From Escherichia coli (GTDB lineage Bacteria > Pseudomonadota > Gammaproteobacteria > Enterobacterales > Enterobacteriaceae), in NCBI RefSeq assembly GCF_046105845.1, contig NZ_CP151004.1: a DNA stretch of 64,000 bases; one strand, 5' to 3'. Shown here in pieces: positions 1 to 58,825 of this stretch. The notes under the pieces are model-generated. The model was not told where the DNA came from. It searched no databases and worked only from the letters and a program-made list of their open reading frames with translations. The position numbers and the translations under genes were made by a program. Position 1 is the stretch's first letter. Every line of letters starts with the position of its first letter.

Positions 1-379
1 TACTGCTGGTCTGCTGTTGTTGCCAGGCTGCTTCCAGTTTTTGCAGCATCCCGGTAATGCGTGACTCCTGATACGGTTTGAGAATGTAGTCAAACGCTTC
101 CAGTTCAAATGCTTCTACCGCATGTTCTTTCCACGCGGTGATGAACACAATAAACGGTTTATGGGCGAACTGGCTGATGTTTTGCGCCAGCAACACACCG
201 TCCAGCGACGGAATATTGATATCCAGAAAAATGGCGTCGACGCGGTTATGCTGCAAAAACTTCAACACGTCCAGACCGTCGTCAAAGGTGCCGACAATCT
301 CCATCTGGCTGTGCTCTTTAATTAGCCAGCTCAGTTCCTGTTGTGCCAGGAATTCGTCTTCAACAATGATGACTTTCAC
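1..379 (-). CDS. ypdB: LytTR-family response regulator, N-terminal receiver part (3' end outside window)
   Basis: Minus-strand ORF starting GTG at 379 (VKVIIVEDEFLAQQEL...) with receiver-domain motifs; immediately downstream of ypdA as in the K-12 ypdABC operon. Confidence 0.85.
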   Translation of the reverse strand, partial: MKVIIVEDEFLAQQELSWLIKEHSQMEIVGTFDDGLDVLKFLQHNRVDAIFLDINIPSLDGVLLAQNISQFAHKPFIVFITAWKEHAVEAFELEAFDYILKPYQESRITGMLQKLEAAWQQQQTSS

Positions 380-393
380 AATATCACTCCGGC

Positions 394-2091
394 TCAAAGC
401 AATAACGTAGCCTGTGAGGCGACTGGGGTGCGTTGGTTAGGAATGTAAAACGCAATTTCCGTCCCCGGTTCCAGGCGGCGGATATGCAGCCCCTCGCCAT
501 ACAATAACTTCACGCGATGATGGACATTCAGCAGGCCAATTTTATTGCCCGGCATTTCGTTCGCTTCGACCCGCTCAATCACCTTTGGATCGATGCCGTG
601 CCCGGTATCCCGCACCGCAATGCGTACCCGATTACCGCACTCTGCAACGCTGATGGTGACAACGCCTTTACCTTTGCAAGGCTGAATACCGTGGACAATG
701 GCGTTCTCCACCAGCGGCTGGATCAGCAGGCTGGGAATGCAGCAATTCACCTCTTCATCAATATCATAGATAACCGTCAGCTTGTCGCCAAAGCGGGCCT
801 GCTCAATGGCAATATAGTCTTTAATTTGATACAGCTCTTTTTTGATATCGATTTGCTCATCATCTTTTAATTCAATGTTATAGCGCAGATAACGCGACAG
901 ATTAAAGATCAGCTGGCGAGCGGTATCCGGATTCAGACGGATTGACGATGAAATAGCGTTCAAAGCGTTAAACAGGAAATGGGGATTAATTTTGCTTTGC
1001 AGGGCGCGAAGCTCTGCCTTATTTGCCATTTCACGTAGCTGCTCGGCGCGTGAAACCTCCAGTTGCGTGGAGATGATTTGCGACAGACCGACCGCCATTT
1101 CCTGTAATGATGACGTAATCTGATGCGCGTGGCAGTAGTAAATTTTCAGTGTTCCGGTCACAACGCCTTTCTCCCACAATGGGATCACCAGCATGGAATG
1201 AATCTCTGGTGTGCGGTGGGCTTCATCATTGTTTTTAATGATGATTTTTCCGTAATTCATCGCCTGTCGGGTAGTCGGGCTAATGAAGTCATCGCCATTC
1301 TGATAGTTGTGTTCACCCACGCCAACATAGGCCAGCACATGATCGGTATTGGTAATCGCCACCGCATCGGCGTGAATATCATCGCGGATAATTTCACAAA
1401 CTTTGCGTAATGACTCGCTATTGACATGGCGAAACAGCGGCAGCGTTTTGTTGGCGATATCCAGCGCCAGCTTGGCCTGCCGCGCGGCGCTGGCCTCTTT
1501 TTCGCCCTCAACGCTTTGTACCAGCAACACAATAAAGCCGATACAGACGCTGCCGAGGATCATTGGAATCCCGATTTTAGAGACGATATCGATCCCCAAC
1601 GCGGTAGTTGGTGCCCAGACAATCACCAGAATCATGGTCAACGTTTCACATAACATGCCGCCGAGAATACCGACGCGCCAGCGCTGTGCTTTAGGGATTT
1701 TCAGGTTGATCCAGCCCGATATACAACCCGCCAGAATGCTGGTGATAAAGCAGGGGATCGCCGTCACGCCGCCGATATCAATTAAATAACGGTGAATACC
1801 TGCGATCACGCCGGTAATAATGCCTACCCACGGGCCAAACAGAATTCCGCCTGACATCACCGCGATAATACGTACGTTCACCAGCGAGCCTTCTACGGGA
1901 ACGCCGGACCAGGTGCTGAACAGGGCGAACAGCGAGAAAATGGCGGTAACGGCGAGCAGCTCTTTCGGTGAGTGTGCCGACTTGTGCAACAGTTCGCGAA
2001 ACAGGCGGATACGGATGAGAAAGAACAGGCAGATAAGCATTAACGCTGCCCGATCGAAGACCGCCAGCAGCATGTTGAATATTTCGTGCAC
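394..2091 (-). CDS. ypdA: LytS-type sensor histidine kinase
   Basis: 565-aa ORF with N-terminal multi-TM region, GAF-like middle and His-kinase/HATPase C-terminus; synteny with alaC and lpxP. Confidence 0.9.
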
Positions 2092-2467
2092 GGGTGACTC
2101 TGAATAAGGATTAAACCTCTATGATAGGTAACCTGAAGGCTGATGACCAGCAGGCCGTTTTTGAGGAAAAACCACAATTTTAAAAGGGGATTGAAAGATA
2201 AATGGTGTATTAGCAATGCATCTCTTGATAATGCACATCTGCTTGGTAAATTTATTGAAATTATAATGTTAATAAAATGAGTGGTAATTTTCTTGTTAGC
2301 GCAGATAAATTTCCTGTTTTTGAAGTGGAGTTCCTCATTTAAAGCCATTGATAAAAATGTTCTAAAACGCTGGACAGACAGAAATTAATCAGGCTATTTT
2401 CAAAACAGCCACCATCGTGGCAGCGTCGCTCGGACGGTCCGGGCGCTAACGTTAATCTGAGGAAATT

Positions 2468-3706
2468 ATGGCTGACACTCGCCCTGAACGTCGCTTTACG
2501 CGCATTGATCGTCTCCCGCCCTACGTTTTTAATATTACCGCTGAACTGAAAATGGCTGCGCGTCGGCGCGGCGAAGATATTATCGATTTCAGTATGGGTA
2601 ACCCGGACGGTGCGACTCCGCCGCACATCGTCGAAAAATTATGTACGGTGGCCCAGCGCCCGGACACGCATGGTTACTCCACTTCACGCGGCATTCCGCG
2701 GCTACGTCGCGCCATTTCACGCTGGTATCAGGATCGCTACGACGTTGAAATCGACCCGGAATCAGAAGCCATCGTCACTATTGGTTCGAAAGAGGGACTG
2801 GCACATCTGATGCTGGCGACGCTGGATCATGGTGACACGGTGCTGGTGCCGAATCCAAGCTACCCCATTCATATTTATGGCGCGGTGATTGCCGGGGCGC
2901 AGGTACGCTCAGTGCCGCTGGTGGAAGGTGTCGATTTCTTCAATGAACTGGAGCGCGCCATTCGCGAAAGTTATCCGAAACCGAAGATGATGATCCTCGG
3001 CTTCCCGTCGAATCCAACCGCGCAATGCGTGGAGCTGGAGTTCTTCGAAAAGGTTGTGGCGCTGGCGAAACGCTACGATGTGCTGGTGGTCCATGACCTG
3101 GCCTATGCCGATATCGTCTACGATGGCTGGAAAGCGCCGTCAATCATGCAGGTGCCGGGTGCACGCGATGTGGCGGTCGAGTTCTTTACGCTGTCGAAAA
3201 GCTACAACATGGCGGGCTGGCGTATCGGCTTTATGGTTGGCAACAAAACGCTGGTCAGCGCGCTGGCACGTATTAAAAGCTATCACGATTACGGCACCTT
3301 TACGCCGTTGCAGGTGGCAGCGATTGCGGCGCTGGAGGGCGATCAACAGTGCGTGCGCGACATTGCTGAACAGTACAAACGCCGCCGTGATGTACTGGTA
3401 AAAGGGCTGCATGAAGCGGGCTGGATGGTCGAAATGCCGAAGGCTTCGATGTATGTCTGGGCGAAAATCCCGGAACCGTATGCTGCCATGGGCTCGCTGG
3501 AATTTGCCAAGAAGCTGCTGAACGAAGCGAAGGTCTGTGTCTCTCCGGGGATTGGCTTTGGCGACTACGGCGACACGCATGTTCGCTTTGCACTGATTGA
3601 AAACCGCGACCGTATTCGTCAGGCGATTCGTGGAATTAAAGCGATGTTCCGTGCCGATGGTTTACTACCCGCCAGCAGCAAACATATTCACGAAAATGCG
3701 GAATAA
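2468..3706 (+). CDS. alaC: glutamate-pyruvate aminotransferase (PLP-dependent class I aminotransferase)
   Basis: 412-aa ORF starting [21 protein letters not shown]; aminotransferase fold motifs; K-12 synteny. Confidence 0.9.
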
Positions 3707-3728
3707 ACACCGACCTCAAAAATGCAAA

Positions 3729-3755
3729 CAGGAGCCTGATGGCTCCTGTTTTTCA
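3729..3755 (+). terminator. rho-independent terminator downstream of alaC
   Basis: Hairpin CAGGAGCC-TGAT-GGCTCCTG followed by a T-run. Confidence 0.7.
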
Positions 3756-3770
3756 TTGCACAGTTTGCTT

Positions 3771-3842
3771 TTAGATCATCAGGGCAAAAGTACCGGCCCA
3801 AACGATGACCATAAAAGAAATGCCCATAAAGAAATATTTCAC
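3771..3842 (-). CDS. ypdK: small membrane protein (23 aa)
   Basis: Minus-strand 24-codon ORF translating to (V/M)KYFFMGISFMVIVWAGTFALMI, matching the recalled K-12 YpdK small protein; GTG start. Confidence 0.5.
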   Translation of the reverse strand: MKYFFMGISFMVIVWAGTFALMI

Positions 3843-4197
3843 TTTACATCTCTCCGCGTAATTACTGTTACGCCTGAATGACTTCATTACACCTGATACA
3901 GTGAGTTGACACCGGGCAAAACGACCTTAAAAGTCCTGTATTTTACCGTGGGCATCACCCCAGAATTCTGAGCTAAACTGCTCCAGACGGCGCTAATGTA
4001 CGCCTAAAACTGAAACGAGACAAGAGGCATTTTCTTATTTACTTTTAGTAACTTACAGGTGTCTCATATCGGCGACAGTTTAATTTCTGGCGGTAATAAT
4101 TAGAGATTCAGCGAAGGAAAAAACCTTAAGAAAAAAGCCATAAAAACCATGAGGTTATTATGGCTGATTTGAGGAGGGAAAGAGTAAGAGCAGTTTG

Positions 4198-5118
4198 TTA
4201 AATGTATAGCGACGATTCTCCCACCGGGCGCGTTTTAAAGCGACGGTGGATCCAGAGGTACTGCTCCGGTGCGCGCATGATCTCTTTTTCGATAATCTTG
4301 TTCATATAGGCAGCGGCTTGATTTTCATCTGCCGGGTAGCCTTCCATCTCTGGGGTGATGTACAAACGATATCCGCTGTAATCCGCTTTTCTTACCATCG
4401 TTACGGTTAACATGGCTGCGCCAGAGAGACGTGAAAGGACATACGTACCATTGGTTGTGGCAACATTTTCCACCGCAAAGAACGGCGCGAAGGAGCTGCC
4501 TTTACGACCATAATCCTGATCGGGAGCAAACCATACCGCTTCACCTTTCTTCAGTGCACCGACAATGCCGCGCAGATTATTTCTGCCGATCATCGCTTTG
4601 TTAGAGCGCATGCGCCCACGGGTCTGCACCCATTCCATCAGCTGATTATTATGTGGACGATAGGTAGCCATCATTGGTTGGCACAGTCCCATCACGCGGC
4701 CGCCCAGTTCCAGCGACATAAAATGGACGCCGACAACCATTACGCCGCGATTTTGCATTTGTGCGCGTTTAAGGTTATCCAACCCTTCAACATCAAACCA
4801 TTTACGTACGCGACTGTCGGGCCAGAACCACGCCATGCCGGTTTCTACCAGCGCCATGCCGAGTGAACGAAAGTTTTCGGCAATCATCTTCTCGCGTTCT
4901 TCCGCAGAATGCTGTGGGAAACAAAGTTCCAGGTTTTTACGGGCGATAGATTCACGCCGTTTCAGGAATGGTCGCGCTATTGCGCCAATACGCGTGCCGA
5001 GAAAGCAGAGAACAGGATAAGGAAGCTGTACCCAAAGCCAGAGTACACCAAGCCCAAACCATGTGAGCCAGTAGCGAGGATGTAGAAACTCGCGGGAAAA
5101 TTTGCATTGTGGAAACAT
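4198..5118 (-). CDS. lpxP: lipid A palmitoleoyl acyltransferase (cold-induced)
   Basis: ORF track 4198..5184; the start is placed at the internal Met (MFPQCKFSREFLHPRYW...) to give the 306-aa length recalled for LpxP; LpxL/LpxP family. Confidence 0.85.
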   Translation of the reverse strand: MFPQCKFSREFLHPRYWLTWFGLGVLWLWVQLPYPVLCFLGTRIGAIARPFLKRRESIARKNLELCFPQHSAEEREKMIAENFRSLGMALVETGMAWFWPDSRVRKWFDVEGLDNLKRAQMQNRGVMVVGVHFMSLELGGRVMGLCQPMMATYRPHNNQLMEWVQTRGRMRSNKAMIGRNNLRGIVGALKKGEAVWFAPDQDYGRKGSSFAPFFAVENVATTNGTYVLSRLSGAAMLTVTMVRKADYSGYRLYITPEMEGYPADENQAAAYMNKIIEKEIMRAPEQYLWIHRRFKTRPVGESSLYI

Positions 5119-5470
5119 AGTTACCTTCTGTAGATACGAATTGTTGTATCGCAGAAGATTCCATGTCGACAGCGGTACACTCAATTGGTTGGGCCATCAT
5201 GTACGACAATGGTTCCTGTAAAGAGTGTAAAGACTAGTCAGGACATAACCACGAGGAGCATGAATGCGGTGGCTCTACTTTATCACTGGCTGACTGCTTT
5301 CAGCTACTGATTATTAATCGTGCAAAGTAAAAAGTTTTCCCCACGCAATAGTGTTGCATTTAAGGTGCTGTTTTCATTGATGCTTAGCAAAAATTGCCAG
5401 AGGTTAAGGATTGTCTTACTATTAAAGTGACTGAAGTTACAGGTTTTTTAGCGCGGCAGGAGGTTGAGCT

Positions 5471-5713
5471 ATGATTTATTTATGGATGTTTCTCGCCCTG
5501 TGTATTGTCTGCGTAAGCGGCTACATTGGTCAGGTCCTGAACGTGGTATCGGCGGTCTCTTCTTTCTTCGGCATGGTGATCCTCGCTGCACTCATTTATT
5601 ACTTCACCATGTGGTTAACTGGCGGTAATGAACTGGTGACGGGGATATTTATGTTTCTTGCCCCTGCTTGTGGCTTGATGATTCGCTTTATGGTGGGGTA
5701 TGGCAGGCGGTAG
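5471..5713 (+). CDS. yfdY: small inner-membrane protein
   Basis: 80-aa hydrophobic ORF; position between lpxP and ypdI as in K-12. Confidence 0.75.
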   Translation: MIYLWMFLALCIVCVSGYIGQVLNVVSAVSSFFGMVILAALIYYFTMWLTGGNELVTGIFMFLAPACGLMIRFMVGYGRR

Positions 5714-5789
5714 TGGGTCAGGATGGTTCATTTGGGCAGGTGTTCACATCAGCATCAGACATGATTGTTCACCTGCCATGTGACAGACG

Positions 5790-6065
5790 CTATCGCACAG
5801 GATGAATAAGATAATTCGCCTTTGTCGAAAAAGGGGGCGTAATGTCTTCTGTGAGATTTAATGGTGGCGCATCTTCTCTCATCTTAAACAAAATCGCCTG
5901 TGATGGCTGAAGTTTTGTAGAGTGTGTGGTCGTCATCGCTGACGTTTTTTCCGTCTCTTTATAGCTCGCCTCACTACCACCACCAGAAATAGAAAATGCA
6001 AAAACATTGCATGCCATAATAGAGACCAATAAAAATAAGCTAAAAAGCATTAAGTTTACTTTCAT
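5790..6065 (-). CDS. ypdI: predicted lipoprotein
   Basis: 91-aa ORF with signal peptide and lipobox (SIMAC); K-12 synteny. Confidence 0.75.
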   Translation of the reverse strand: MKVNLMLFSLFLLVSIMACNVFAFSISGGGSEASYKETEKTSAMTTTHSTKLQPSQAILFKMREDAPPLNLTEDITPPFSTKANYLIHPVR

Positions 6066-6207
6066 AGAAAGTTATCCTGAAAATGGTTCACTGAAAACCT
6101 ACGACGTTATTGCTGTATTTACATATAATTAATCAGTATTTACATCGATATAATAAATGACATCTCTTTTTGGTATATAAGAATAGTTCTCTGTGACAGG
6201 AAGCATA

Positions 6208-6225
6208 TTCCTACAATTGTAAGAC
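6208..6225. promoter_or_regulatory. EvgA box upstream of yfdX
   Basis: TTCCTACAATTGTAAGAC matches the 18-bp EvgA inverted-repeat consensus TTCPyTACA-N2-TGTAPuGAA. Confidence 0.65.
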
Positions 6226-6360
6226 TAAAATACTTCTTGCGATAATAACTACAACTGTAAGATAACCCTTTCAAAATGACCGTTGCTCTCTGATTTCTCA
6301 TTTCATACTCACCCAATATGATGGCGGCGTTTTCTAAAACTGTTAAAGAATGAGGTAAGT

Positions 6361-6993
6361 ATGAAACGTTTAATTATGGCTACGATGGTCACAGCAATTC
6401 TGGCATCTTCAACTGTATGGGCGGCTGATAATGCACCGGTAGCGGCACAACAGCAAACTCAGCAAGTTCAGCAAACCCAGAAAACGGCAGCAGCAGAGCG
6501 TATCTCTGAACAAGGTTTATATGCGATGCGTGACGTGCAGGTAGCGCGCCTGGCTCTGTTTCATGGCGATCCGGAAAAGGCAAAAGAACTGACCAATGAA
6601 GCTTCAGCTTTGTTGTCAGATGACAGTACCGAATGGGCAAAGTTCGCTAAGCCAGGTAAAAAAACCAATGTCAATGATGACCAATATATTGTCATTAATG
6701 CATCTATCGGAATTTCTGAGAGTTATGTAGCGACACCCGAAAAAGAAGCCGCGATAAAAATTGCCAACGAAAAAATGGCGAAAGGGGATAAAAAGGGCGC
6801 AATGGAAGAGCTTCGCCTGGCCGGTGTTGGCGTAATGGAAAACCAATATCTGATGCCGCTCAAACAGACTCGTAATGCACTTGCTGATGCGCAGAAACTG
6901 CTTGATAAAAAGCAATACTACGAGGCAAACCTGGCGCTTAAAGGTGCGGAAGATGGAATCATCGTCGATAGCGAAGCACTGTTTGTGAACTAA
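6361..6993 (+). CDS. yfdX: EvgA-regulated periplasmic protein (YfdX family)
   Basis: 210-aa ORF with signal peptide ([21 protein letters not shown]); K-12 synteny. Confidence 0.85.
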
Positions 6994-7236
6994 TGCTGAC
7001 AGGCAGTATATTGAGGTAAAGGATTTAACTCCCTCCAGCCGACAATTTTTTATGACCACAATACGACAGATTGTGGTCATAAAATTATTTGGCGCTCGCG
7101 GTTCTATAAACTCGCATTTTATCTTCCTCAAAGTAAACCGCAATAATCCCGTGTCATCACAAATCATTTATTATGTTATGTTTTATGGTACGCTTTAAAA
7201 AGCGTAATCATACCCTTACTTGTAAATCACCGGCGC

Positions 7237-7254
7237 TTCTTACAGTTGTAAGAA
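7237..7254. promoter_or_regulatory. EvgA box upstream of frc
   Basis: TTCTTACAGTTGTAAGAA is a perfect match to the EvgA inverted-repeat consensus. Confidence 0.7.
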
Positions 7255-7505
7255 TAACATCACAAATGTCGCGGCTCTCTCTGATTACCGCGAACCAATA
7301 TTTATCATATTCTTCTTTTCGTCCTCACTACTTACCATGCAGAAAGGAATTGGAAGTGGCGATGAAATGATTTTCAGCACTTGATACAGGAATTTAAAAA
7401 TATCGAGTGCAGCTACGACGATATTTTGCGGATTATTTATAGAGGGCGTTATGCCTTAAATAAACGCTAAATTAACATATATTTAATTAACTAATAGGTA
7501 TTGCT

Positions 7506-8756
7506 ATGTCAACTCCACTTCAAGGAATTAAAGTTCTCGATTTCACCGGTGTGCAATCTGGCCCATCTTGTACTCAAATGCTGGCCTGGTTTGGCGCTGA
7601 CGTCATTAAAATTGAACGTCCCGGCGTTGGTGACGTAACGCGTCACCAGCTGCGAGATATTCCTGATATCGATGCGCTTTACTTCACCATGCTTAACAGT
7701 AACAAACGTTCTATTGAATTAAATACCAAAACAGCGGAAGGCAAAGAGGTAATGGAAAAGCTGATCCGCGAAGCTGATATCTTAGTCGAGAACTTTCATC
7801 CTGGGGCCATTGATCACATGGGCTTCACCTGGGAGCATATTCAAGAAATCAATCCACGTCTGATTTTTGGTTCGATCAAAGGGTTTGATGAGTGTTCGCC
7901 TTATGTGAATGTAAAAGCCTATGAAAACGTTGCTCAGGCAGCGGGTGGCGCGGCATCCACTACGGGTTTTTGGGACGGTCCGCCGCTGGTAAGCGCTGCA
8001 GCGTTGGGTGACAGCAACACCGGAATGCATTTACTGATCGGTTTACTTGCTGCTTTGCTGCATCGCGAAAAAACGGGGCGTGGGCAACGAGTCACCATGT
8101 CAATGCAGGATGCCGTATTGAACCTTTGCCGCGTGAAATTACGCGACCAGCAGCGTCTCGATAAATTGGGTTATCTGGAAGAATACCCGCAGTATCCGAA
8201 TGGCACATTTGGTGATGCAGTTCCCCGCGGAGGTAATGCGGGTGGTGGCGGTCAGCCTGGCTGGATCCTGAAATGTAAAGGCTGGGAAACCGATCCTAAC
8301 GCCTATATTTATTTCACTATTCAGGAGCAAAACTGGGAAAACACCTGTAAAGCCATCGGCAAACCAGATTGGATTACCGATCCGGCATACAGTACAGCCC
8401 ATGCCCGACAGCCACATATTTTCGATATTTTTGCTGAAATCGAAAAATACACTGTCACTATTGATAAACATGAAGCGGTGGCCTATTTGACTCAGTTTGA
8501 TATTCCTTGTGCACCGGTTTTAAGTATGAAAGAAATTTCACTTGATCCCTCTTTGCGCCAAAGTGGCAGTGTTGTTGAAGTGGAACAACCGTTGCGTGGA
8601 AAATATCTGACAGTTGGTTGTCCAATGAAATTCTCTGCCTTTACGCCGGATATTAAAGCTGCGCCGCTATTAGGTGAACATACCGCTGCTGTATTGCAGG
8701 AGCTGGGTTATAGCGACGATGAAATTGCTGCAATGAAGCAAAACCACGCCATCTGA
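7506..8756 (+). CDS. frc: formyl-CoA:oxalate CoA-transferase
   Basis: 416-aa ORF, family III CoA-transferase ([40 protein letters not shown]); synteny with oxc. Confidence 0.9.
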
Positions 8757-8809
8757 TATTAACGGGGGCTTCTGGCTCCCAATTTATAAAAATTTCGAGG
8801 TTATTAATC

Positions 8810-10504
8810 ATGTCAGATCAACTTCAAATGACAGATGGTATGCATATCATCGTTGAAGCATTAAAACAGAATGATATTGACACTATTTATGGTGTTGTAG
8901 GTATTCCTGTGACGGATATGGCACGCCATGCCCAGGCGGAAGGCATTCGTTATATTGGTTTTCGTCATGAGCAGTCGGCAGGCTATGCCGCTGCGGCAAG
9001 CGGTTTTCTTACCCAAAAACCGGGGATCTGCCTGACAGTTTCTGCGCCAGGATTCCTCAATGGTTTGACCGCATTGGCCAATGCAACGGTAAATGGTTTT
9101 CCGATGATCATGATTAGCGGCTCCAGCGACCGCGCGATCGTCGACCTACAGCAAGGTGATTATGAAGAGCTGGACCAAATGAATGCGGCAAAACCGTATG
9201 CCAAAGCAGCATTCCGCGTTAATCAGCCGCAGGATCTTGGCATTGCATTGGCACGCGCTATCCGGGTCTCAGTATCGGGTCGCCCTGGCGGAGTTTATCT
9301 TGATTTACCAGCAAATGTCCTGGCCGCGACGATGGAAAAAGACGAAGCGTTAACCACGATTGTAAAAGTTGAAAATCCGTCGCCAGCATTATTGCCATGC
9401 CCGAAGTCAGTCACTAGCGCAATTTCGCTTTTAGCAAAAGCTGAACGTCCATTAGTTATCCTTGGCAAAGGCGCGGCGTATTCACAAGCGGATGAACAGC
9501 TTCGTGAATTTATTGAAAGTGCCCAGATTCCATTCCTGCCAATGTCTATGGCGAAAGGGATCCTCGAAGATACACATCCACTTTCTGCGGCAACTGCGCG
9601 TTCGTTTGCCCTGGCAAATGCTGACGTTGTCATGCTTGTTGGTGCACGACTGAATTGGTTACTGGCACACGGTAAAAAAGGATGGGCGGCAGATACACAG
9701 TTTATTCAACTGGATATTGAACCGCAGGAAATTGACAGCAACCGCCCCATTGCTGTGCCAGTCGTTGGCGATATTGCATCCAGTATGCAAGATATGCTGG
9801 CAGAACTGAAAAAAAACACATTTACGACTCCACTGGTATGGCGCGATATTTTAAATATCCACAAGCAGCAAAATGCACAAAAAATGCATGAAAAATTAAG
9901 TACAGATACTCAACCATTAAATTACTTTAATGCATTAAGTGCTGTGCGCGATGTATTGCGCGAGAACCAGGATATTTATTTAGTTAATGAAGGTGCAAAT
10001 ACCCTGGATAATGCACGAAATATTATTGATATGTATAAACCACGTCGCCGTCTGGATTGTGGTACCTGGGGTGTCATGGGCATCGGTATGGGCTATGCCA
10101 TCGGTGCTAGCGTGACCTCTGGTTCTCCGGTTGTCGCCATTGAAGGTGATAGTGCTTTTGGTTTCAGTGGGATGGAGATTGAAACGATTTGTCGATATAA
10201 CCTGCCGGTGACGGTCGTTATTTTTAATAATGGCGGCATCTACAGAGGAGACGGTGTTGATCTCAGTGGCGCTGGTGCACCATCACCAACAGATCTATTG
10301 CACCATGCAAGGTATGACAAATTAATGGATGCGTTTCGTGGCGTTGGCTATAACGTCACTACGACAGATGAACTTCGTCATGCTTTAACCACCGGTATTC
10401 AGTCGCGCAAACCGACCATTATTAATGTGGTCATCGACCCTGCAGCAGGAACTGAAAGTGGCCATATTACCAAACTTAACCCAAAACAAGTCGCTGGTAA
10501 TTAA
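8810..10504 (+). CDS. oxc: oxalyl-CoA decarboxylase (ThDP-dependent)
   Basis: 564-aa ORF with ThDP-binding motif ([31 protein letters not shown]). Confidence 0.9.
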
Positions 10505-25671: not shown

Positions 25672-26919
25672 ATGGCACTGAATATTCCATTCAGAAATGC
25701 GTACTATCGTTTTGCATCCAGTTACTCATTTCTCTTTTTTATTTCCTGGTCGCTGTGGTGGTCGTTATACGCTATTTGGCTGAAAGGACATCTAGGATTA
25801 ACAGGGACTGAATTAGGTACACTTTATTCGGTCAACCAGTTTACCAGCATTCTATTTATGATGTTCTACGGCATCGTTCAGGATAAACTCGGTCTGAAGA
25901 AACCGCTCATCTGGTGTATGAGTTTCATTCTGGTCTTGACCGGACCGTTTATGATTTACGTTTATGAACCGTTACTGCAAAGCAATTTTTCTGTAGGTCT
26001 AATTCTGGGGGCGCTCTTTTTTGGCCTGGGGTATCTGGCGGGATGCGGTTTGCTTGACAGCTTCACTGAAAAAATGGCGCGAAATTTTCATTTCGAATAT
26101 GGAACAGCGCGCGCCTGGGGATCTTTTGGCTATGCTATTGGCGCGTTCTTTGCCGGTATATTTTTTAGTATCAGTCCCCATATCAACTTCTGGTTGGTCT
26201 CGCTATTTGGCGCTGTATTTATGATGATCAACATGCGTTTTAAAGATAAGGATCACCAGTGCATAGCGGCGGATGCGGGAGGGGTAAAAAAAGAGGATTT
26301 TATCGCAGTTTTCAAGGATCGAAACTTCTGGGTTTTTGTCATATTTATTGTGGGGACGTGGTCTTTCTATAACATTTTTGATCAACAACTCTTTCCTGTC
26401 TTTTATGCAGGTTTATTCGAATCACACGATGTAGGAACGCGCCTGTATGGTTATCTCAACTCATTCCAGGTGGTACTCGAAGCGCTGTGCATGGCGATTA
26501 TTCCTTTCTTTGTGAATCGGGTAGGGCCAAAAAATGCATTACTTATCGGTGTTGTGATTATGGCGTTGCGTATCCTTTCCTGCGCGCTGTTCGTTAACCC
26601 CTGGATTATTTCATTAGTGAAGCTGTTACATGCCATTGAGGTTCCACTTTGTGTCATATCCGTCTTCAAATACAGCGTGGCAAACTTTGATAAGCGCCTG
26701 TCGTCGACGATCTTTCTGATTGGTTTTCAAATTGCCAGTTCGCTTGGGATTGTGCTGCTTTCAACGCCGACTGGGATACTCTTTGACCACGCAGGCTACC
26801 AGACAGTTTTCTTCGCAATTTCGGGTATTGTCTGCCTGATGTTGCTATTTGGCATTTTCTTCTTGAGTAAAAAACGCGAGCAAATAGTTATGGAAACGCC
26901 TGTACCTTCAGCAATATAG
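25672..26919 (+). CDS. cscB: sucrose:H+ symporter (MFS, LacY family)
   Basis: 415-aa 12-TM ORF, LacY-like. Confidence 0.9.
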   Translation: MALNIPFRNAYYRFASSYSFLFFISWSLWWSLYAIWLKGHLGLTGTELGTLYSVNQFTSILFMMFYGIVQDKLGLKKPLIWCMSFILVLTGPFMIYVYEPLLQSNFSVGLILGALFFGLGYLAGCGLLDSFTEKMARNFHFEYGTARAWGSFGYAIGAFFAGIFFSISPHINFWLVSLFGAVFMMINMRFKDKDHQCIAADAGGVKKEDFIAVFKDRNFWVFVIFIVGTWSFYNIFDQQLFPVFYAGLFESHDVGTRLYGYLNSFQVVLEALCMAIIPFFVNRVGPKNALLIGVVIMALRILSCALFVNPWIISLVKLLHAIEVPLCVISVFKYSVANFDKRLSSTIFLIGFQIASSLGIVLLSTPTGILFDHAGYQTVFFAISGIVCLMLLFGIFFLSKKREQIVMETPVPSAI

Positions 26920-27360
26920 ACGTAAACTTTTTCCGGTTGTTGTCGATATCTCCATATCCCTCAACCGGAAAATAGTAATACAAAAATGCTTAGCCCAACT
27001 AATAATCACCTAATCCAAACGCCTCATTCATGTTCTGGTACAGTCGCTCAAATGTACTCCGGATACGCGGTTCGCTGATTTCCAGGACATTGTCGTCATT
27101 CAGCGACCTGTCCCGAGTATCACGGGCCTGCGAATTCATCAAGGAATGCATTGCAGAGTGAAGTATCGAGTCACGCCATATTTCGCTATCAGGATTCTGT
27201 ATGATGGTTACATCGCCCGGCCCAGGGCTGTTTAGTCATCAGCGCTTTCTGACAGTGCTGAGATTTCAACCTGTTGCAGTAAAAATGAGTAGATATAGGG
27301 CAAGTGTGCTGCCAAACCCATCTTTTACGGGGTGAAGGTAGATATTGTTAGAAGGGTATC

Positions 27361-27375
27361 TGGTGTCCCCTGCAG
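27361..27375 (-). repeat. attR core: duplicated 3' end of tRNA-Arg (argW)
   Basis: TGGTGTCCCCTGCAG is the reverse complement of the argW acceptor 3' end CTGCAGGGGACACCA (recalled tRNA sequence). Confidence 0.7.
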
Positions 27376-27448
27376 ACATCTACTTGACGCGGCAGGGGAT
27401 TGATTGGAATGGTGTTTTTTGGATGTGAGAAATATTTTACCCGCTATT

Positions 27449-27649
27449 TTACCCATTGGCGCGGCTTAAGAGCTTATTTTTGAATTCACAATGGTCACGA
27501 TATAACCATCTTGCTCGCCCGTGGATAACTTTAGCTTTTGGCAGGTCGCCGGACTTAATCCGGTCATAGATGAAGGTTTTACCGAAGCCAGTATCGGCCA
27601 TGATGAATTTCAAATCAACCAGTGAATCAGGTTGTAGTTCGTGTTGCAT
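27449..27649 (-). CDS. torI: excisionase / recombination directionality factor (TorI family, winged helix)
   Basis: 66-aa product MQHELQPDSLVDLKFIMADTGFGKTFIYDRIKSGDLPKAKVIHGRARWLYRDHCEFKNKLLSRANG matches recalled K-12 KplE1 TorI; the ORF track gives a longer 27449..27664 version. Confidence 0.85.
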   Translation of the reverse strand: MQHELQPDSLVDLKFIMADTGFGKTFIYDRIKSGDLPKAKVIHGRARWLYRDHCEFKNKLLSRANG

Positions 27650-27706
27650 GAGTGCTATCTCCAAATAGGGAATCGAACCTGCAAATCAGGCAATAAAAAA
27701 CCGCCA

Positions 27707-27874
27707 TCAGGCGGCTTGATGTTCTTTCAGTTCTTCAATTCGAATATTGGTTACGTCTGCATGTGCTATCTGCGCCCATATCATCCAGTGGTCATAGCAG
27801 TCGTTGATGTTCTCTGCTTCGATAACTCTGTTGAATGGTTCTCCATTCCATTCACCTGTGACTCGGAAGTGCAT
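27707..27874 (-). CDS. small hypothetical prophage protein (55 aa)
   Basis: ORF MHFRVTGEWNGEPFNRVIEAENINDCYDHWMIWAQIAHADVTNIRIEELKEHQAA, below the ORF-track cut-off; followed on the minus strand by hairpin CCGCC-TGAT-GGCGG plus T-run. Confidence 0.4.
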   Translation of the reverse strand: MHFRVTGEWNGEPFNRVIEAENINDCYDHWMIWAQIAHADVTNIRIEELKEHQAA

Positions 27875-27962
27875 TTATCATCTCCATAAAACAAAACCCT
27901 CCGTAGCGAGTTCAGATAAAAGAAATCCCCGCGAATGCGAGGATTGTTATGTAATATTTGGT

Positions 27963-28244
27963 TTAATCATCTATATGTTTTGTACAGAGAGGGCAAGTAT
28001 CGTTTCCACCGTACTCGTGATAATAATTTTGCACGGTAGCAGTCATTTCTCGCACATTGCAGAATGGGGATTTGTCTTCATTAGACTTATAAACCTTCAT
28101 GGAATATTTGTATGCCGACTCTATATCTATACCTTCATCTACATAAACACCTTCGTGATGTCTGCATGGAGACAAGACACCGGATCTGCACAACATTGAT
28201 AACGCCCAATCTTTTTGCTCAGACTCTAACTCATTGATACTCAT
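27963..28244 (-). CDS. hypothetical Cys-rich protein (93 aa)
   Basis: ORF with AAGGAG RBS 8 nt upstream; five Cys including a CPLC pair; AT-rich; about 200 bp untranslated upstream. Confidence 0.5.
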   Translation of the reverse strand: MSINELESEQKDWALSMLCRSGVLSPCRHHEGVYVDEGIDIESAYKYSMKVYKSNEDKSPFCNVREMTATVQNYYHEYGGNDTCPLCTKHIDD

Positions 28245-28446
28245 TTATAAACTCCTTGCAATGTATGTCGTTTCAGCTAAACGGTATCAGCAATGTTTAT
28301 GTAAAGAAACAGTAAGATAATACTCAACCCGATGTTTGAGTACGGTCATCATCTGACACTACAGACTCTGGCATCGCTGTGAAGACGACGCGAAATTCAG
28401 CATTTTCACAAGCGTTATTTTTTACAAACCCGTATTCCTGCTCATA

Positions 28447-29070
28447 TCACTCTCCTTTGATGCGAATACCAGCAGTGCGCTCGGCTTCACTTTGTTCCCA
28501 AAACCACTTGTGAAGCTCCATAAGCTTTTCGTCAATCGGTGCATATTTGCGATTAAAGTAGGCCTGAGCATCTTTCTCAGATTCGTCCGGCAATTCGCCT
28601 GGGCCAAACAGTGTGTTATAAATCCATGCCAGTCCGCTTTTAGCGTCGCCAGTTGCCTGCCATTCGATAATCGCAGCCTGCATGACCAGAATGTTTTTCC
28701 CGATTAACAGGTCCAGTTCTTTGAACCGGTTGCGGATGTATGCATTCTCGCTTTGTAATTTTGCGTTGCGCTTCTCTGCGGCTTCCAGCTCAACACGCAG
28801 TTTCCCTACCGCTAGCGCAATTTCCTCGTTCTCCTGGTCGCGGCGTTTGATGTATTGCTGGTTTCTTTCCCGTTCATCCAGTAGTGCCAGCACGGTTTCT
28901 GGTCCGGCCAGAAATTTGAAGGCGTTGAGCGCATCAATATCCACACCGTAATCTTTAAGTTCCTGTTCACTTAACAAATCATCATCAGCTGGCAACATTA
29001 ACAGGCGTTCCATTGCTGGAATTGCACGTTCCGCCACCTCACGCAGTGCCTGGTAATTAATTTCGCTCAC
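28447..29070 (-). CDS. hypothetical prophage early protein, Ea22-like coiled-coil
   Basis: 207-aa ORF in the PL-distal region; central coiled-coil (ALAVGKLRVELEAAEKRNAKLQSEN); family assignment is by resemblance only. Confidence 0.5.
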   Translation of the reverse strand: MSEINYQALREVAERAIPAMERLLMLPADDDLLSEQELKDYGVDIDALNAFKFLAGPETVLALLDERERNQQYIKRRDQENEEIALAVGKLRVELEAAEKRNAKLQSENAYIRNRFKELDLLIGKNILVMQAAIIEWQATGDAKSGLAWIYNTLFGPGELPDESEKDAQAYFNRKYAPIDEKLMELHKWFWEQSEAERTAGIRIKGE

Positions 29071-29516
29071 TGGTTGCCTCCTTTGCGAAGCTGGGCAGCA
29101 AAGTCACGGATAGTGTCATCAAGGTCTGGGCACAACAGATGGTCAGCAAACATCTCTACCCCCTGCGCCCGTACTTCAGCCAGGAAAGCATCGGTGGTTG
29201 GGGTTTCAGTAACATCATCTTCCCATTCGCCAAACTCCTCACGACAAAAGTCATTAAATTCCTTCTCAGATTGCTTAAGCGAGGTATTTTCTGCAGCCAT
29301 CTTCGCGCATTTAGCCTCAAGGTTATCAATCGTGATTCCAGCAGAACGACACTCCCGCAACGCCGTTTCCAGTTTTGATTCAAGCTCACCGAACTTACGC
29401 ACCAGATATTCAGCGTTTGTTTCGTTAACCTTTAAATCTCGTGGAAAGCATTTACCTTTCAGAAAACCATCCATCTCAATTAGTGACATTAGTTTCATTT
29501 CTTCCCACTCCGCCAC
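29067..29516 (-). CDS. hypothetical prophage early protein (Ea22-like N-terminal type)
   Basis: 149-aa ORF overlapping the next gene by 4 bp (ATGA). Confidence 0.5.
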
Positions 29517-29655
29517 ATAGCATTCAGATATTTGTTGTCATTAACAGAACCGAAACTATTTCTCTTAAGTAATTCCTCTCTCGATGGCATTGGCTTTACG
29601 CGTTGGCGAATAATCATTTCTGCCGGAAGAATGCCGGGATTGTATGCAAGTCCTC

Positions 29656-29946
29656 TCATGATTTACTCTCCACGAACTGGTCAACAGCCATGCTAAGTGA
29701 CACACCTAAAGTCTCGATATGTTGCTGAATATCCTGTAGCGTCTGCGCCTGAGATAACAGGATTTCACGGTTGCATAACTCTTTAGCCAGATGCTCAAAC
29801 TTGCTGTAATAACCGATACGACTTAGTGTTTCTTTGCCTGCATTCTCGCCTTCTTTGATAATTCCTCTTTCGCTAAGAATCAGATCGTGTTTGGTTCCGG
29901 TAATAACGTATTTTCCGAGGTCGATGTTTAGCTTCATTGTTTTCAT
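29656..29946 (-). CDS. hypothetical early protein (96 aa), in the position of P22 abc genes
   Basis: ORF track 29656..30099; start placed at the internal ATG with GAGGAA RBS ([17 protein letters not shown]...); functional assignment is by synteny with erf only. Confidence 0.45.
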
Positions 29947-29956
29947 TGTTAATTCC

Positions 29957-30253
29957 TCAGTCATTACTGATAGCGCCATAGCGTGAGCGGTAATTACGCA
30001 GGCGCGGGTCGATATATTCAGGGAAGTGGGTATATGTGGCTTTGCGGAATGGTCGGATTGATGTCTGGTAAATTCGCTCGCGTTCTTCTTTCTCTGCAAG
30101 CCATATACAATGGCGAAATTCCTTTTCCTCTTTCGTTTCCTGCGGTAGCGACATTATCCGGTCGTAGTTTTTCCTGAATTTATCCAGCACCTCCGATACG
30201 GAATTGCCGGAACAGCGGCGCGGGTCATCCGCACCATACAGAGGCGCTGGCAT
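29957..30253 (-). CDS. hypothetical early protein (98 aa), in the position of P22 abc genes
   Basis: ORF in the PL operon downstream of erf. Confidence 0.45.
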   Translation of the reverse strand: MPAPLYGADDPRRCSGNSVSEVLDKFRKNYDRIMSLPQETKEEKEFRHCIWLAEKEERERIYQTSIRPFRKATYTHFPEYIDPRLRNYRSRYGAISND

Positions 30254-30276: not shown

Positions 30277-30660
30277 TTAGAAGGGAATTGAATCGTCGTA
30301 TTCAGGATGATTTTGATGATTGCTACTTTGTTGCTGTTGGCTGTTTCCTGAAGTTGCAAATCCAATCTTTGCATTCAGTAATTCAAGAGTGATTGATTGA
30401 CCATTTTGCCCCTGATAAACATCAACCCTGATGTTTTCTCCGGTAATTTCTACAATGCCACCTTCAACAAGAACACTACGGTAGTAATCCGCTTGCGCTC
30501 CCGGCTTGGCAAATACAACGGCGCTGTAGTTTGTCCATTCTTTCTTTTTTGTCTGGCGATCGTAATACTGAACGCCAGCACGGATGTTGAATCCGATATT
30601 TTCCCCGGCCTGAAACTCTCTTGCGGGCTTGTTTAGTCTTACAGTAATCGAATGTGCCAT
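30277..30660 (-). CDS. hypothetical early protein (127 aa), possibly OB-fold-like
   Basis: Start ATG overlaps the erf stop (TAATG coupling); product MAHSITVRLNKPAREFQAGENIGFNIRAGVQYYDRQTKKKEW... Confidence 0.5.
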   Translation of the reverse strand: MAHSITVRLNKPAREFQAGENIGFNIRAGVQYYDRQTKKKEWTNYSAVVFAKPGAQADYYRSVLVEGGIVEITGENIRVDVYQGQNGQSITLELLNAKIGFATSGNSQQQQSSNHQNHPEYDDSIPF

Positions 30661-31265
30661 TAAGCAGCCGCTCCTTCTAATTCGTCTCGTCTGATGTTGT
30701 AAACGTCCTGCGCTTTGTGCTGCTCCGGTGTGCCTTCGAGCATCTTCCACGCTTTGGCGAACGCCTGTTTAAGCTCTTCTACGGTGTTTTTCTGCAATGC
30801 TGCGTCAGTGAATGCTTTTAGAACCTGTTCAGATGTAGGTGATGGTTTTGATTGCTTTGCTGCTGCGTTCTGCTGATGTTTATGCTCGTCGGTATCTGCA
30901 TCTTTCGCATCATCAATGCCGAACAAACCATTGAGGCAATACTTGCGTGCATAAGAGCTTGTAGCTCCAGTAACTTGTGCAGAATCCATTCCTTTCTTGC
31001 TTTCTTCCTCTCGTGCAAGGGCGGTTGCTGTATGACTGTTTTCGCCATCAGTAATAGTTGCTGTTGCTTTCACGTAATACCGATCACCAATCAACACAAC
31101 TTCATCGCTGATTGATAAAAACAGGCCATTCAGTAACGGCTTAACGCCTTCAAGAATGTCTTCGCAGCTTCTGTATTTATATTTACCGAATGAGTTGTAC
31201 TGATTCTTTGGCGCGTTCAGATTCTCCTGAATGGCTGCCAGTCTTGCGTAAAATTCTTTGCTCAT
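30660..31265 (-). CDS. erf: ssDNA-annealing recombinase (Erf family)
   Basis: Product MSKEFYARLAAIQENLNAPKNQYNSFGKYKYRSCEDILEGVKPLL... closely matches recalled P22 Erf; ORF track 30660..31295 with an upstream alternative start. Confidence 0.85.
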   Translation of the reverse strand: MSKEFYARLAAIQENLNAPKNQYNSFGKYKYRSCEDILEGVKPLLNGLFLSISDEVVLIGDRYYVKATATITDGENSHTATALAREEESKKGMDSAQVTGATSSYARKYCLNGLFGIDDAKDADTDEHKHQQNAAAKQSKPSPTSEQVLKAFTDAALQKNTVEELKQAFAKAWKMLEGTPEQHKAQDVYNIRRDELEGAAA

Positions 31266-31366
31266 ATGTTTGTTCTCAGAATGGACACGGCCCAAGGAAA
31301 TAACGCTGATTTAATACTTCGACTCGGGACAAATTAAGGCATACCCGCATTCCTTCGCGGTCACCA

Positions 31367-58757: not shown

Positions 58758-58825
58758 AGTTGAAGCCCCAACTGCGGGAACAGTCAGGGCTTCGGTATCA
58801 ACAAATCGGATTAGGAAATATTGAC

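Follow-up and report, generated by a model that had tools for sequence, protein, structure and literature searches.

The two overlapping open reading frames at positions 28,447 to 29,516 of a 64,000-nucleotide stretch of Escherichia coli DNA (assembly GCF_046105845.1, contig NZ_CP151004.1; the whole stretch is called the window here) are, with a probability of roughly 0.93, two independent and intact genes of a lambdoid prophage of the P22/HK620 kind, located in its early-left (pL, exo-xis/ea) operon: an HkaH-type gene (ORF1) and an ea22 gene (ORF2), joined by a GTGA overlap. Both genes are identifiable and intact, their junction is conserved, and each assorts independently of the other. From the arrangement of the sequence, we infer that they are also cotranscribed and translationally coupled. 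A preliminary description of the window had regarded both frames as parts of Ea22-like proteins and had proposed either a genuine two-gene arrangement or a single frameshifted gene. The first of these options is the correct one, as indicated by the conservation of the junction, the precedent of phage HK620, and the RefSeq annotation; none of the observations speaks against it.

Layout of the locus

On the minus strand, the genes follow one another in the order erf, abc2 (anti-RecBCD), a DUF5405-like gene, the DUF2737 gene, ORF1, ORF2, ea8.5, an orf55 homologue, and a xis/TorI-type excisionase gene (Table 1). ORF2 has the location that characterizes the Ea22 family, with the recombination genes of the pL early-left operon on one side and xis on the other, and the ea8.5 homologue downstream makes it the positional counterpart of lambda ea22. 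Two frames of 149 and 207 amino acids with a 4-bp overlap, as given in the preliminary description, are indeed present on this strand.

Table 1. Features of the ORF1-ORF2 locus (window coordinates)
Feature	Position	Strand	Details
ORF1, HkaH-type gene	29067..29498	-	143 aa from conserved ATG
ORF1, maximal ORF form	29067..29516	-	149 aa from GTG at 29516
ORF2, Ea22-family gene	28447..29070	-	207 aa, GTG start
GTGA overlap of the ORF1 TGA stop and the ORF2 GTG start	29067..29070	-	direct sequence reading
Shine-Dalgarno sequence AAGGAGG for ORF2	29077..29083	-	direct sequence reading
DUF2737 gene, 54 aa, 5′ of ORF1	29495..29659	-	Pfam PF10930, E = 4e-30; RefSeq annotation
ATGA overlap of the DUF2737 stop and the ORF1 ATG	29495-29498	-	junction sequence
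Ea22 3′-end boundary block, ~27 nt, GCTGGCATTCGCATCAAAGGAGAGTGA	28447..28473	-	conserved across Ea22-type gene ends
Remnant ORF, 7 codons, MSRNTGL	28422..28445	-	site of a full gene in related phages
ea8.5 homologue, 3′ of ORF2	27963..28244	-	Pfam PF20735, E = 7e-48

Part of the locus is close to lambda itself. Positions 27687-28473 of the window are 96.6% identical to positions 29098-29873 of lambda, a block running from orf55 through ea8.5 and the intergenic region into the last 27 nt of ea22. The lambda homology stops exactly at the Ea22 3′-end block (28447..28473).

A promoter and terminator scan found no promoter-like or terminator-like site between ORF1 and ORF2; the sites that it did report, at about 27700 and 27930, are located downstream of ea8.5 and close to the orf55 homologue. 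A tRNA scan returned no tRNA in the window, and an Rfam scan returned one P22-type sar RNA, located elsewhere in the window and distant from the locus.

The upstream gene

ORF1 is 80% identical to HkaH of phage HK620 over its full length (E = 2e-90 by BLASTP) and matches PHROG 614 (E = 1e-58); judged by this similarity, it is a homologue of HkaH. Searches of Pfam and NCBIfam placed it in no family, with NCBIfam giving only subthreshold noise for ORF1 and ORF2 alike. All 48 aligned homologues begin with MK(Q/L)M, which points to the ATG at 29498 as the start codon and to a protein of 143 amino acids, the extent annotated by RefSeq as an intact coding sequence. The sizes in the preliminary description can therefore be kept for ORF2 (207 amino acids) and have to be revised for ORF1, for which 149 amino acids describes only the maximal open frame.

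From the N to the C terminus, the 48-sequence alignment shows an invariant region of ~70 amino acids, a variable linker, a conserved motif, a variable cassette, and a conserved tail ending in LRKGGNQ. Homologues of 143 to 172 amino acids mark ORF1 as a separate gene; the full span in the databases is 143 to 231 amino acids, and the longer homologues of both ORF1 and ORF2 are start-codon overextensions or DUF2737 fusions. The AlphaFold model of ORF1 (pLDDT, 73) is all helical, with helices at residues 26-52, 57-89, and 100-138. When this model was compared with the PDB by Foldseek, no match reached an E value of ≤0.001 (best, 2.3) and only generic helical proteins were returned; a PDB sequence search with both ORFs gave no meaningful match.

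The assignment of both frames to Ea22-like proteins does not hold for ORF1. We found no match to PF13935 (Ead_Ea22) in ORF1 at an E value of ≤0.1 in a Pfam search and no significant similarity to lambda Ea22 by BLASTP (E = 0.2). The BLASTP match between ORF1 and ORF2 (E = 0.017) is confined to the coiled-coil stretch, and ORF1 ends in KGGNQ, not in the +GE tripeptide (see below). On these sequence comparisons, ORF1 is not a member of the Ea22 family, and it should not inherit the label “Ea22-like” in annotation.

What ORF1 has in common with some Ea22-like proteins is, as far as profiles and alignments indicate, only a set of exchangeable modules. PHROGs 368, 492, and 14548 have matches in ORF1 as well as in ORF2, located in different parts: on the 378 profile positions of PHROG 14548, ORF1 is found at 3-140 and ORF2 at 200-276. 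Given this profile, distant proteins with both kinds of module may exist. In E. coli strain rl0044, a single 230-amino-acid “ead/Ea22-like” chimera combines the N-terminal 43 amino acids of HkaH with a lambda-type Ea22 coiled coil. The shared modules and this chimera are probably the source of the earlier impression that both frames are Ea22-like.

The downstream gene

[quoted passage not shown] It matches Pfam PF13935 with 107.3 bits (gathering cutoff, 27; E = 1.3e-30), residues 2-109 corresponding to positions 1-122 of the 139 in the profile, and it matches PHROG 250 with an E value of 4e-92. Lambda Ea22 and ORF2 are 54% identical in a BLASTP alignment that begins at Met1 (MSEINSQALRE in lambda) and extends through the coiled coil. 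The AlphaFold model has N-terminal helices at residues 6-54 and a continuous helix at residues 57-140 (pLDDT up to 95), followed by a C-terminal part that is helical at low confidence (pLDDT below 60).

In an alignment of 16 Ea22-family sequences, the invariant elements are the start MS(E/K)I(N/D)YQALRE, the core LLDERERNQQYIKRRDQENE-IAL-VGKLRVELE, and the end AGIRIKGE; the variable parts are the N-terminal insert and the C-terminal domain. Alignment to Ea22-family proteins, which the preliminary description had suggested as a check, shows that ORF2 has the complete architecture of the family, beginning at Met1 and ending in KGE. Its AGIRIKGE end carries the basic-Gly-Glu tripeptide (+GE) found at the C terminus of Ea22, the significance of which is listed as unknown (PMC7093339). 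Stand-alone homologues of 207 to 208 amino acids form >100 protein clusters (95 to 100% identity) in E. coli, Escherichia albertii, and Salmonella, and database homologues range from 205 to 256 amino acids. Taken by its sequence, ORF2 is a complete Ea22-family protein and not a fragment.

The Ea22 proteins of lambda and Stx phages form a tetrameric coiled coil and favor lysogeny (PMC7093339, PMC10834534). By analogy, we infer a prolysogenic role for this allele. Being an intact member of a family that biases lambda and Stx phages toward lysogeny, ORF2 may be functional in this prophage.

The junction between the two genes

The overlap is exactly 4 nt long, reading tcac on the plus strand and GTGA in the coding direction. 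The coding strand before ORF2 runs CGC AAA GGA GGC AAC CAG TGA (R K G G N Q stop), so that the K-G-G codons of the ORF1 tail contain an AAGGAGG motif 6 nt upstream of the ORF2 GTG. These features, namely, a stop/start overlap, a Shine-Dalgarno sequence within the upstream gene, no promoter-like or terminator-like site in between, and conservation in relatives, are those of a translationally coupled gene pair.

The same arrangement recurs in viral sequences. For each ORF, we scanned viral contigs and retained the best 80 matches, near-duplicates included, so the counts that follow describe nonindependent events. Among the best 80 contigs with an ORF1 homologue, an NTGA stop/start overlap was present at all 79 readable junctions and a Shine-Dalgarno-like motif was present at 71 of them. 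The gene that follows is of the Ea22 type in about 40, roughly half; the other contigs have members of unrelated families there (e.g., 99-amino-acid MSVYLI/MTVCLI proteins and 105-amino-acid MTITKQ proteins). A DUF7739 gene of 297 nt occupies the exact junction in E. coli W224N, and the flanking homology resumes at GTGA.

The scan with ORF2 gave 73 Ea22 loci. The start codon was GTG in 67 and ATG in 4 of these loci, with a Shine-Dalgarno-like motif upstream in 70 and a 4-nt overlap with some upstream gene in 52. The upstream genes themselves are diverse, including TraR/Orf73-type zinc-finger, DUF2737, HkaH-type (only 14/73), DUF7739, and other families.

The junction is also found unchanged in bacterial genomes. 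A 1,401-bp segment of the window is 100% identical in E. coli AR_0118, an independent complete genome, in which RefSeq annotates two intact coding sequences, as it likewise does in strains E7476 and 90-9281. Related prophages with the same two frames and a conserved stop and start, which the preliminary description had named as the observation that would speak against its suspicion of a frameshift, were thus found many times. Its proposal to resequence positions 29060-29075 is unnecessary, as identical junctions occur in many independent assemblies.

The following course of expression would fit these observations. ORF1 and ORF2 would be carried on one pL transcript with the gene run DUF2737, HkaH-type, Ea22. 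Translation of ORF2 would begin at its own GTG, served by the AAGGAGG in the last ORF1 codons. Ribosomes at the GTGA would either start afresh or reinitiate after completing ORF1, which would amount to translational coupling. The conserved junction is in addition a module boundary for recombinational gene exchange among lambdoid phages.

Phage HK620 as a precedent

Phage HK620 reportedly carries hkaH and hkaG in its early-left operon (Clark et al. 2001, J Mol Biol 311:657; PMC3029335). The gene order is the same as here, with a DUF2737 gene (hkaI), hkaH, and an Ea22-like gene (hkaG) joined by 4-nt stop/start overlaps, and it occurs in a viable phage. HkaG and ORF2 have the start, the coiled-coil core, and the AGIRIKGE end in common; HkaG is longer (238 versus 207 amino acids), and the two differ in the N-terminal insert and in the C-terminal domain. 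HkaH, at 160 amino acids compared with 143 for ORF1, contains a 17-amino-acid cassette near the C terminus that ORF1 lacks.

Lambda Ea22 (182 amino acids) resembles ORF2 in its IRIKGE tail and in its position upstream of ea8.5 and orf55. It differs in that its C-terminal domain, solved by nuclear magnetic resonance, is unrelated to that of ORF2, and in that the N-terminal part of ORF2 has a 23-residue insert. The upstream neighbors also differ, being orf73 in lambda and an HkaH-type gene here.

Coupled ATGA/GTGA overlaps are seen in lambdoid early operons, and here NTGA is present at both ends of ORF1, with the Shine-Dalgarno sequence in the last codons of the upstream gene. Short conserved boundary sequences have been proposed to mediate module exchange among lambdoid phages, a proposal summarized in PMC3029335 (Susskind & Botstein 1978; Clark et al. 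2001). The conserved junction blocks of ~20 to 30 nt that we find between unrelated modules do not differ from these in kind. The lambdoid gene organization of this locus is ordinary and already known.

One gene, two genes, or two relatives

Among the other readings, the one that survives best is that ORF1 and ORF2 lie in tandem as diverged members of one modular coiled-coil family, swapping modules and possibly forming a mixed oligomer. In both models, a short head of helices is followed by one long helix and a small C-terminal part that is again helical, and each gene ends in a boundary cassette containing AAAGGAG. The three PHROGs common to both ORFs, the rl0044 chimera, and the weak similarity that BLASTP finds in the coiled-coil stretch point in the same direction. 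However, the composition of coiled coils produces spurious similarity, and the Ead_Ea22 profile of Pfam finds no match in ORF1. The two genes also keep different company: the small share of Ea22 loci with an HkaH-type gene upstream is mirrored by about half of the HkaH-type genes preceding something else. That ORF1 and Ea22 are not obligate neighbors argues against an obligate heterocomplex. We consider this reading as a whole unlikely.

A second reading, the frameshifted single gene of the preliminary description, holds that one ancestral Ea22-like gene was split by a 1-nt indel near 29070, through mutation or sequencing error, leaving two pseudogene halves. The ORFs do abut in a −1 frame relation and share three PHROG profiles, and there is a precedent in Stx phage 933W, where the Ea22 region likewise consists of two adjacent genes, ea22 and L0065 (PMC8614690). 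In 933W, though, an insertion has moved the Ea22 C-terminal domain to L0065, whereas ORF2 keeps the whole architecture and ORF1 belongs to another family. ORF2 begins at the Met1 of its family and ORF1 ends at the conserved tail of its own, while the frame of ORF2 is open for just 33 nt upstream of the GTG. The recurrence of the junction at every readable site in the relatives, its presence in HK620 hkaH/hkaG and in RefSeq prophages, and the identical sequence in AR_0118 are equally at odds with a chance lesion.

Selection acts on both halves of the supposed gene. Against collinear relatives, dN/dS was 0.15 to 0.28 for ORF1 and 0.13 to 0.23 for ORF2 (0.13 to 0.28 over both), which indicates purifying selection on two frames of which the second has start signals of its own; a frameshifted pseudogene would be expected to show neither. 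Values of 0.5 to 0.65 obtained in some pairs are an artifact of the forced alignment of nonhomologous C-terminal modules and were set aside.

A fused homologue would have been the clearest sign of an ancestral single gene. We queried 5.8 billion proteins with an artificial 350-amino-acid ORF1-ORF2 protein, scoring the 8,000 candidates with the most words in common with the query. No natural fusion covering both halves was found among the scored candidates; the best were stand-alone 207-amino-acid proteins (441 bits, 59% coverage). A true fusion would have scored far higher. Two sets of apparent fusions were rejected. The first, at four loci, is an Ea22 frame that stays open for a further 72 codons upstream; this extension is fortuitous, overlaps a Lar-like gene, and has no homology to ORF1. 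The second comprises database proteins of 256 and 218 amino acids, which are start-codon overcalls. A split gene is highly improbable, and the comparative sequence data refute it.

The least credible reading of all is a programmed −1 ribosomal frameshift toward the 3′ end of ORF1, adding an ORF1-ORF2 fusion to the separate products. The −1 frame relation of the two ORFs speaks for it, as does the strong internal Shine-Dalgarno sequence (AAGGAGG) just upstream of the overlap, a kind of sequence that can promote frameshifting (dnaX is an example). Against it, the only 33 nt with an open −1 frame contain no X XXY YYZ slippery heptamer, and the partners vary both downstream of ORF1 and upstream of Ea22, so that a fusion product cannot be a conserved feature.

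With two separate genes as the preferred reading, the locus should be kept in annotation as two genes, with no pseudogene or sequencing-error flag.

The 3′ end of ea22

Of 47 Ea22-type genes compared at their ends, 46 share the same terminal 18 nt, CGCATCAAAGGAGAGTGA, and the remaining one has TAA for TGA. The wider block of ~27 nt at this end is conserved also at synonymous positions, with unrelated flanks on both sides (61 distinct contexts). The ATG of the next gene lies 1 nt past the Ea22 stop in 43 of the 47, with AAGGAG 6 nt upstream of that ATG. In 36 relatives, the frame opened by this ATG encodes 49 to 302 amino acids, with many different N termini; in the window, in AR_0118, and in five viral contigs, it is reduced to a 7-codon remnant.

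It is conceivable, at a little less than even odds, that the invariant protein tails (+GE in Ea22 and RKGGNQ in HkaH) are mainly a matter of the nucleotide level, representing the coding face of a boundary cassette of ~20 to 30 nt that would bear the Shine-Dalgarno sequence and the start of any gene that follows and would act as a recombination linker. Less likely is the further idea that the HkaH-type and Ea22 products of the coupled genes assemble together. The +GE motif falls on the boundary block and the ribosome-binding site of the gene that follows, and this coincidence could explain a motif for which no significance has been listed.

Prophage type and mosaic structure

The sar RNA match indicates a P22/HK620-like prophage. 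Within an early-left operon that is otherwise of the P22/HK620 type, we found a stretch (window positions 27687-28473) that is 96.6% identical to lambda positions 29098-29873; it spans orf55, ea8.5, and the 3′-terminal part of ea22. The presence of this lambda-like block inside such an operon is a clear mosaic joint. In E. coli strain AR_0118, the identical ea22 region adjoins an integrase, unlike in the window, showing that one module is carried by different prophage backbones. No tRNA gene was found in the window, and the transporter gene at the prophage end resembles that of the sucrose permease CscB.

Features of the prophage and its flank (window coordinates)
Feature	Position	Strand	Remarks
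Oligosaccharide MFS transporter gene	25672-26919		Adjoins prophage end (region 25672-27664)
TorI-type excisionase gene	27449-27649		Without adjacent integrase
abc2	29957-30253		P22/HK620-type early-left operon
157-aa ORF	30277-30750	minus	Between abc2 and erf
erf	30660-31295		P22/HK620-type early-left operon
sar RNA (Rfam RF00262)	58758-58824	minus	71.6 bits; P22 immI antisense RNA

The 157-aa ORF has no Pfam match and, as listed, shares ∼90 nt with the erf ORF. Hypothetical proteins of ∼127 aa are annotated at this position in related loci, and the real start of the ORF probably lies further downstream than listed.

Gene boundaries and coding-region recombination

Ea22-type genes are closed by a conserved block of ∼27 nt, GCTGGCATTCGCATCAAAGGAGAGTGA, both in the window (within 28422-28473, minus strand) and in the compared relatives (loci L001-L089). 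As the ATG of the variable next gene follows 1 nt past this block, the basic-Gly-Glu tail of Ea22 coincides with the Shine-Dalgarno sequence of the next gene and with a boundary cassette. In the window, the gene after ea22 (same interval and strand) is a mere 7-codon remnant, MSRNTGL.

Exchange has also occurred elsewhere than at gene boundaries. A 230-aa “ead/Ea22-like” protein of E. coli rl0044 (locus L007, 1436-2128) joins 43 N-terminal HkaH-type residues to lambda-type Ea22 sequence inside the coiled coil (NEQREYYEGVISDGSKRIA); this chimera is the product of recombination within the coding region. In another relative (L049), the ORF directly downstream of the HkaH-type gene encodes a 221-aa protein whose N-terminal half is unrelated but which terminates in the C-terminal HkaH-type module (...AAELRKGGNQ), showing that the module is mobile between proteins.

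HkaH-type genes also occur in decayed and fused forms: a viral contig (L010, 2501-2515) carries a nonsense codon at codon 5, and a 197-aa database protein (P0001) is a DUF2737-HkaH fusion over the ATGA junction.
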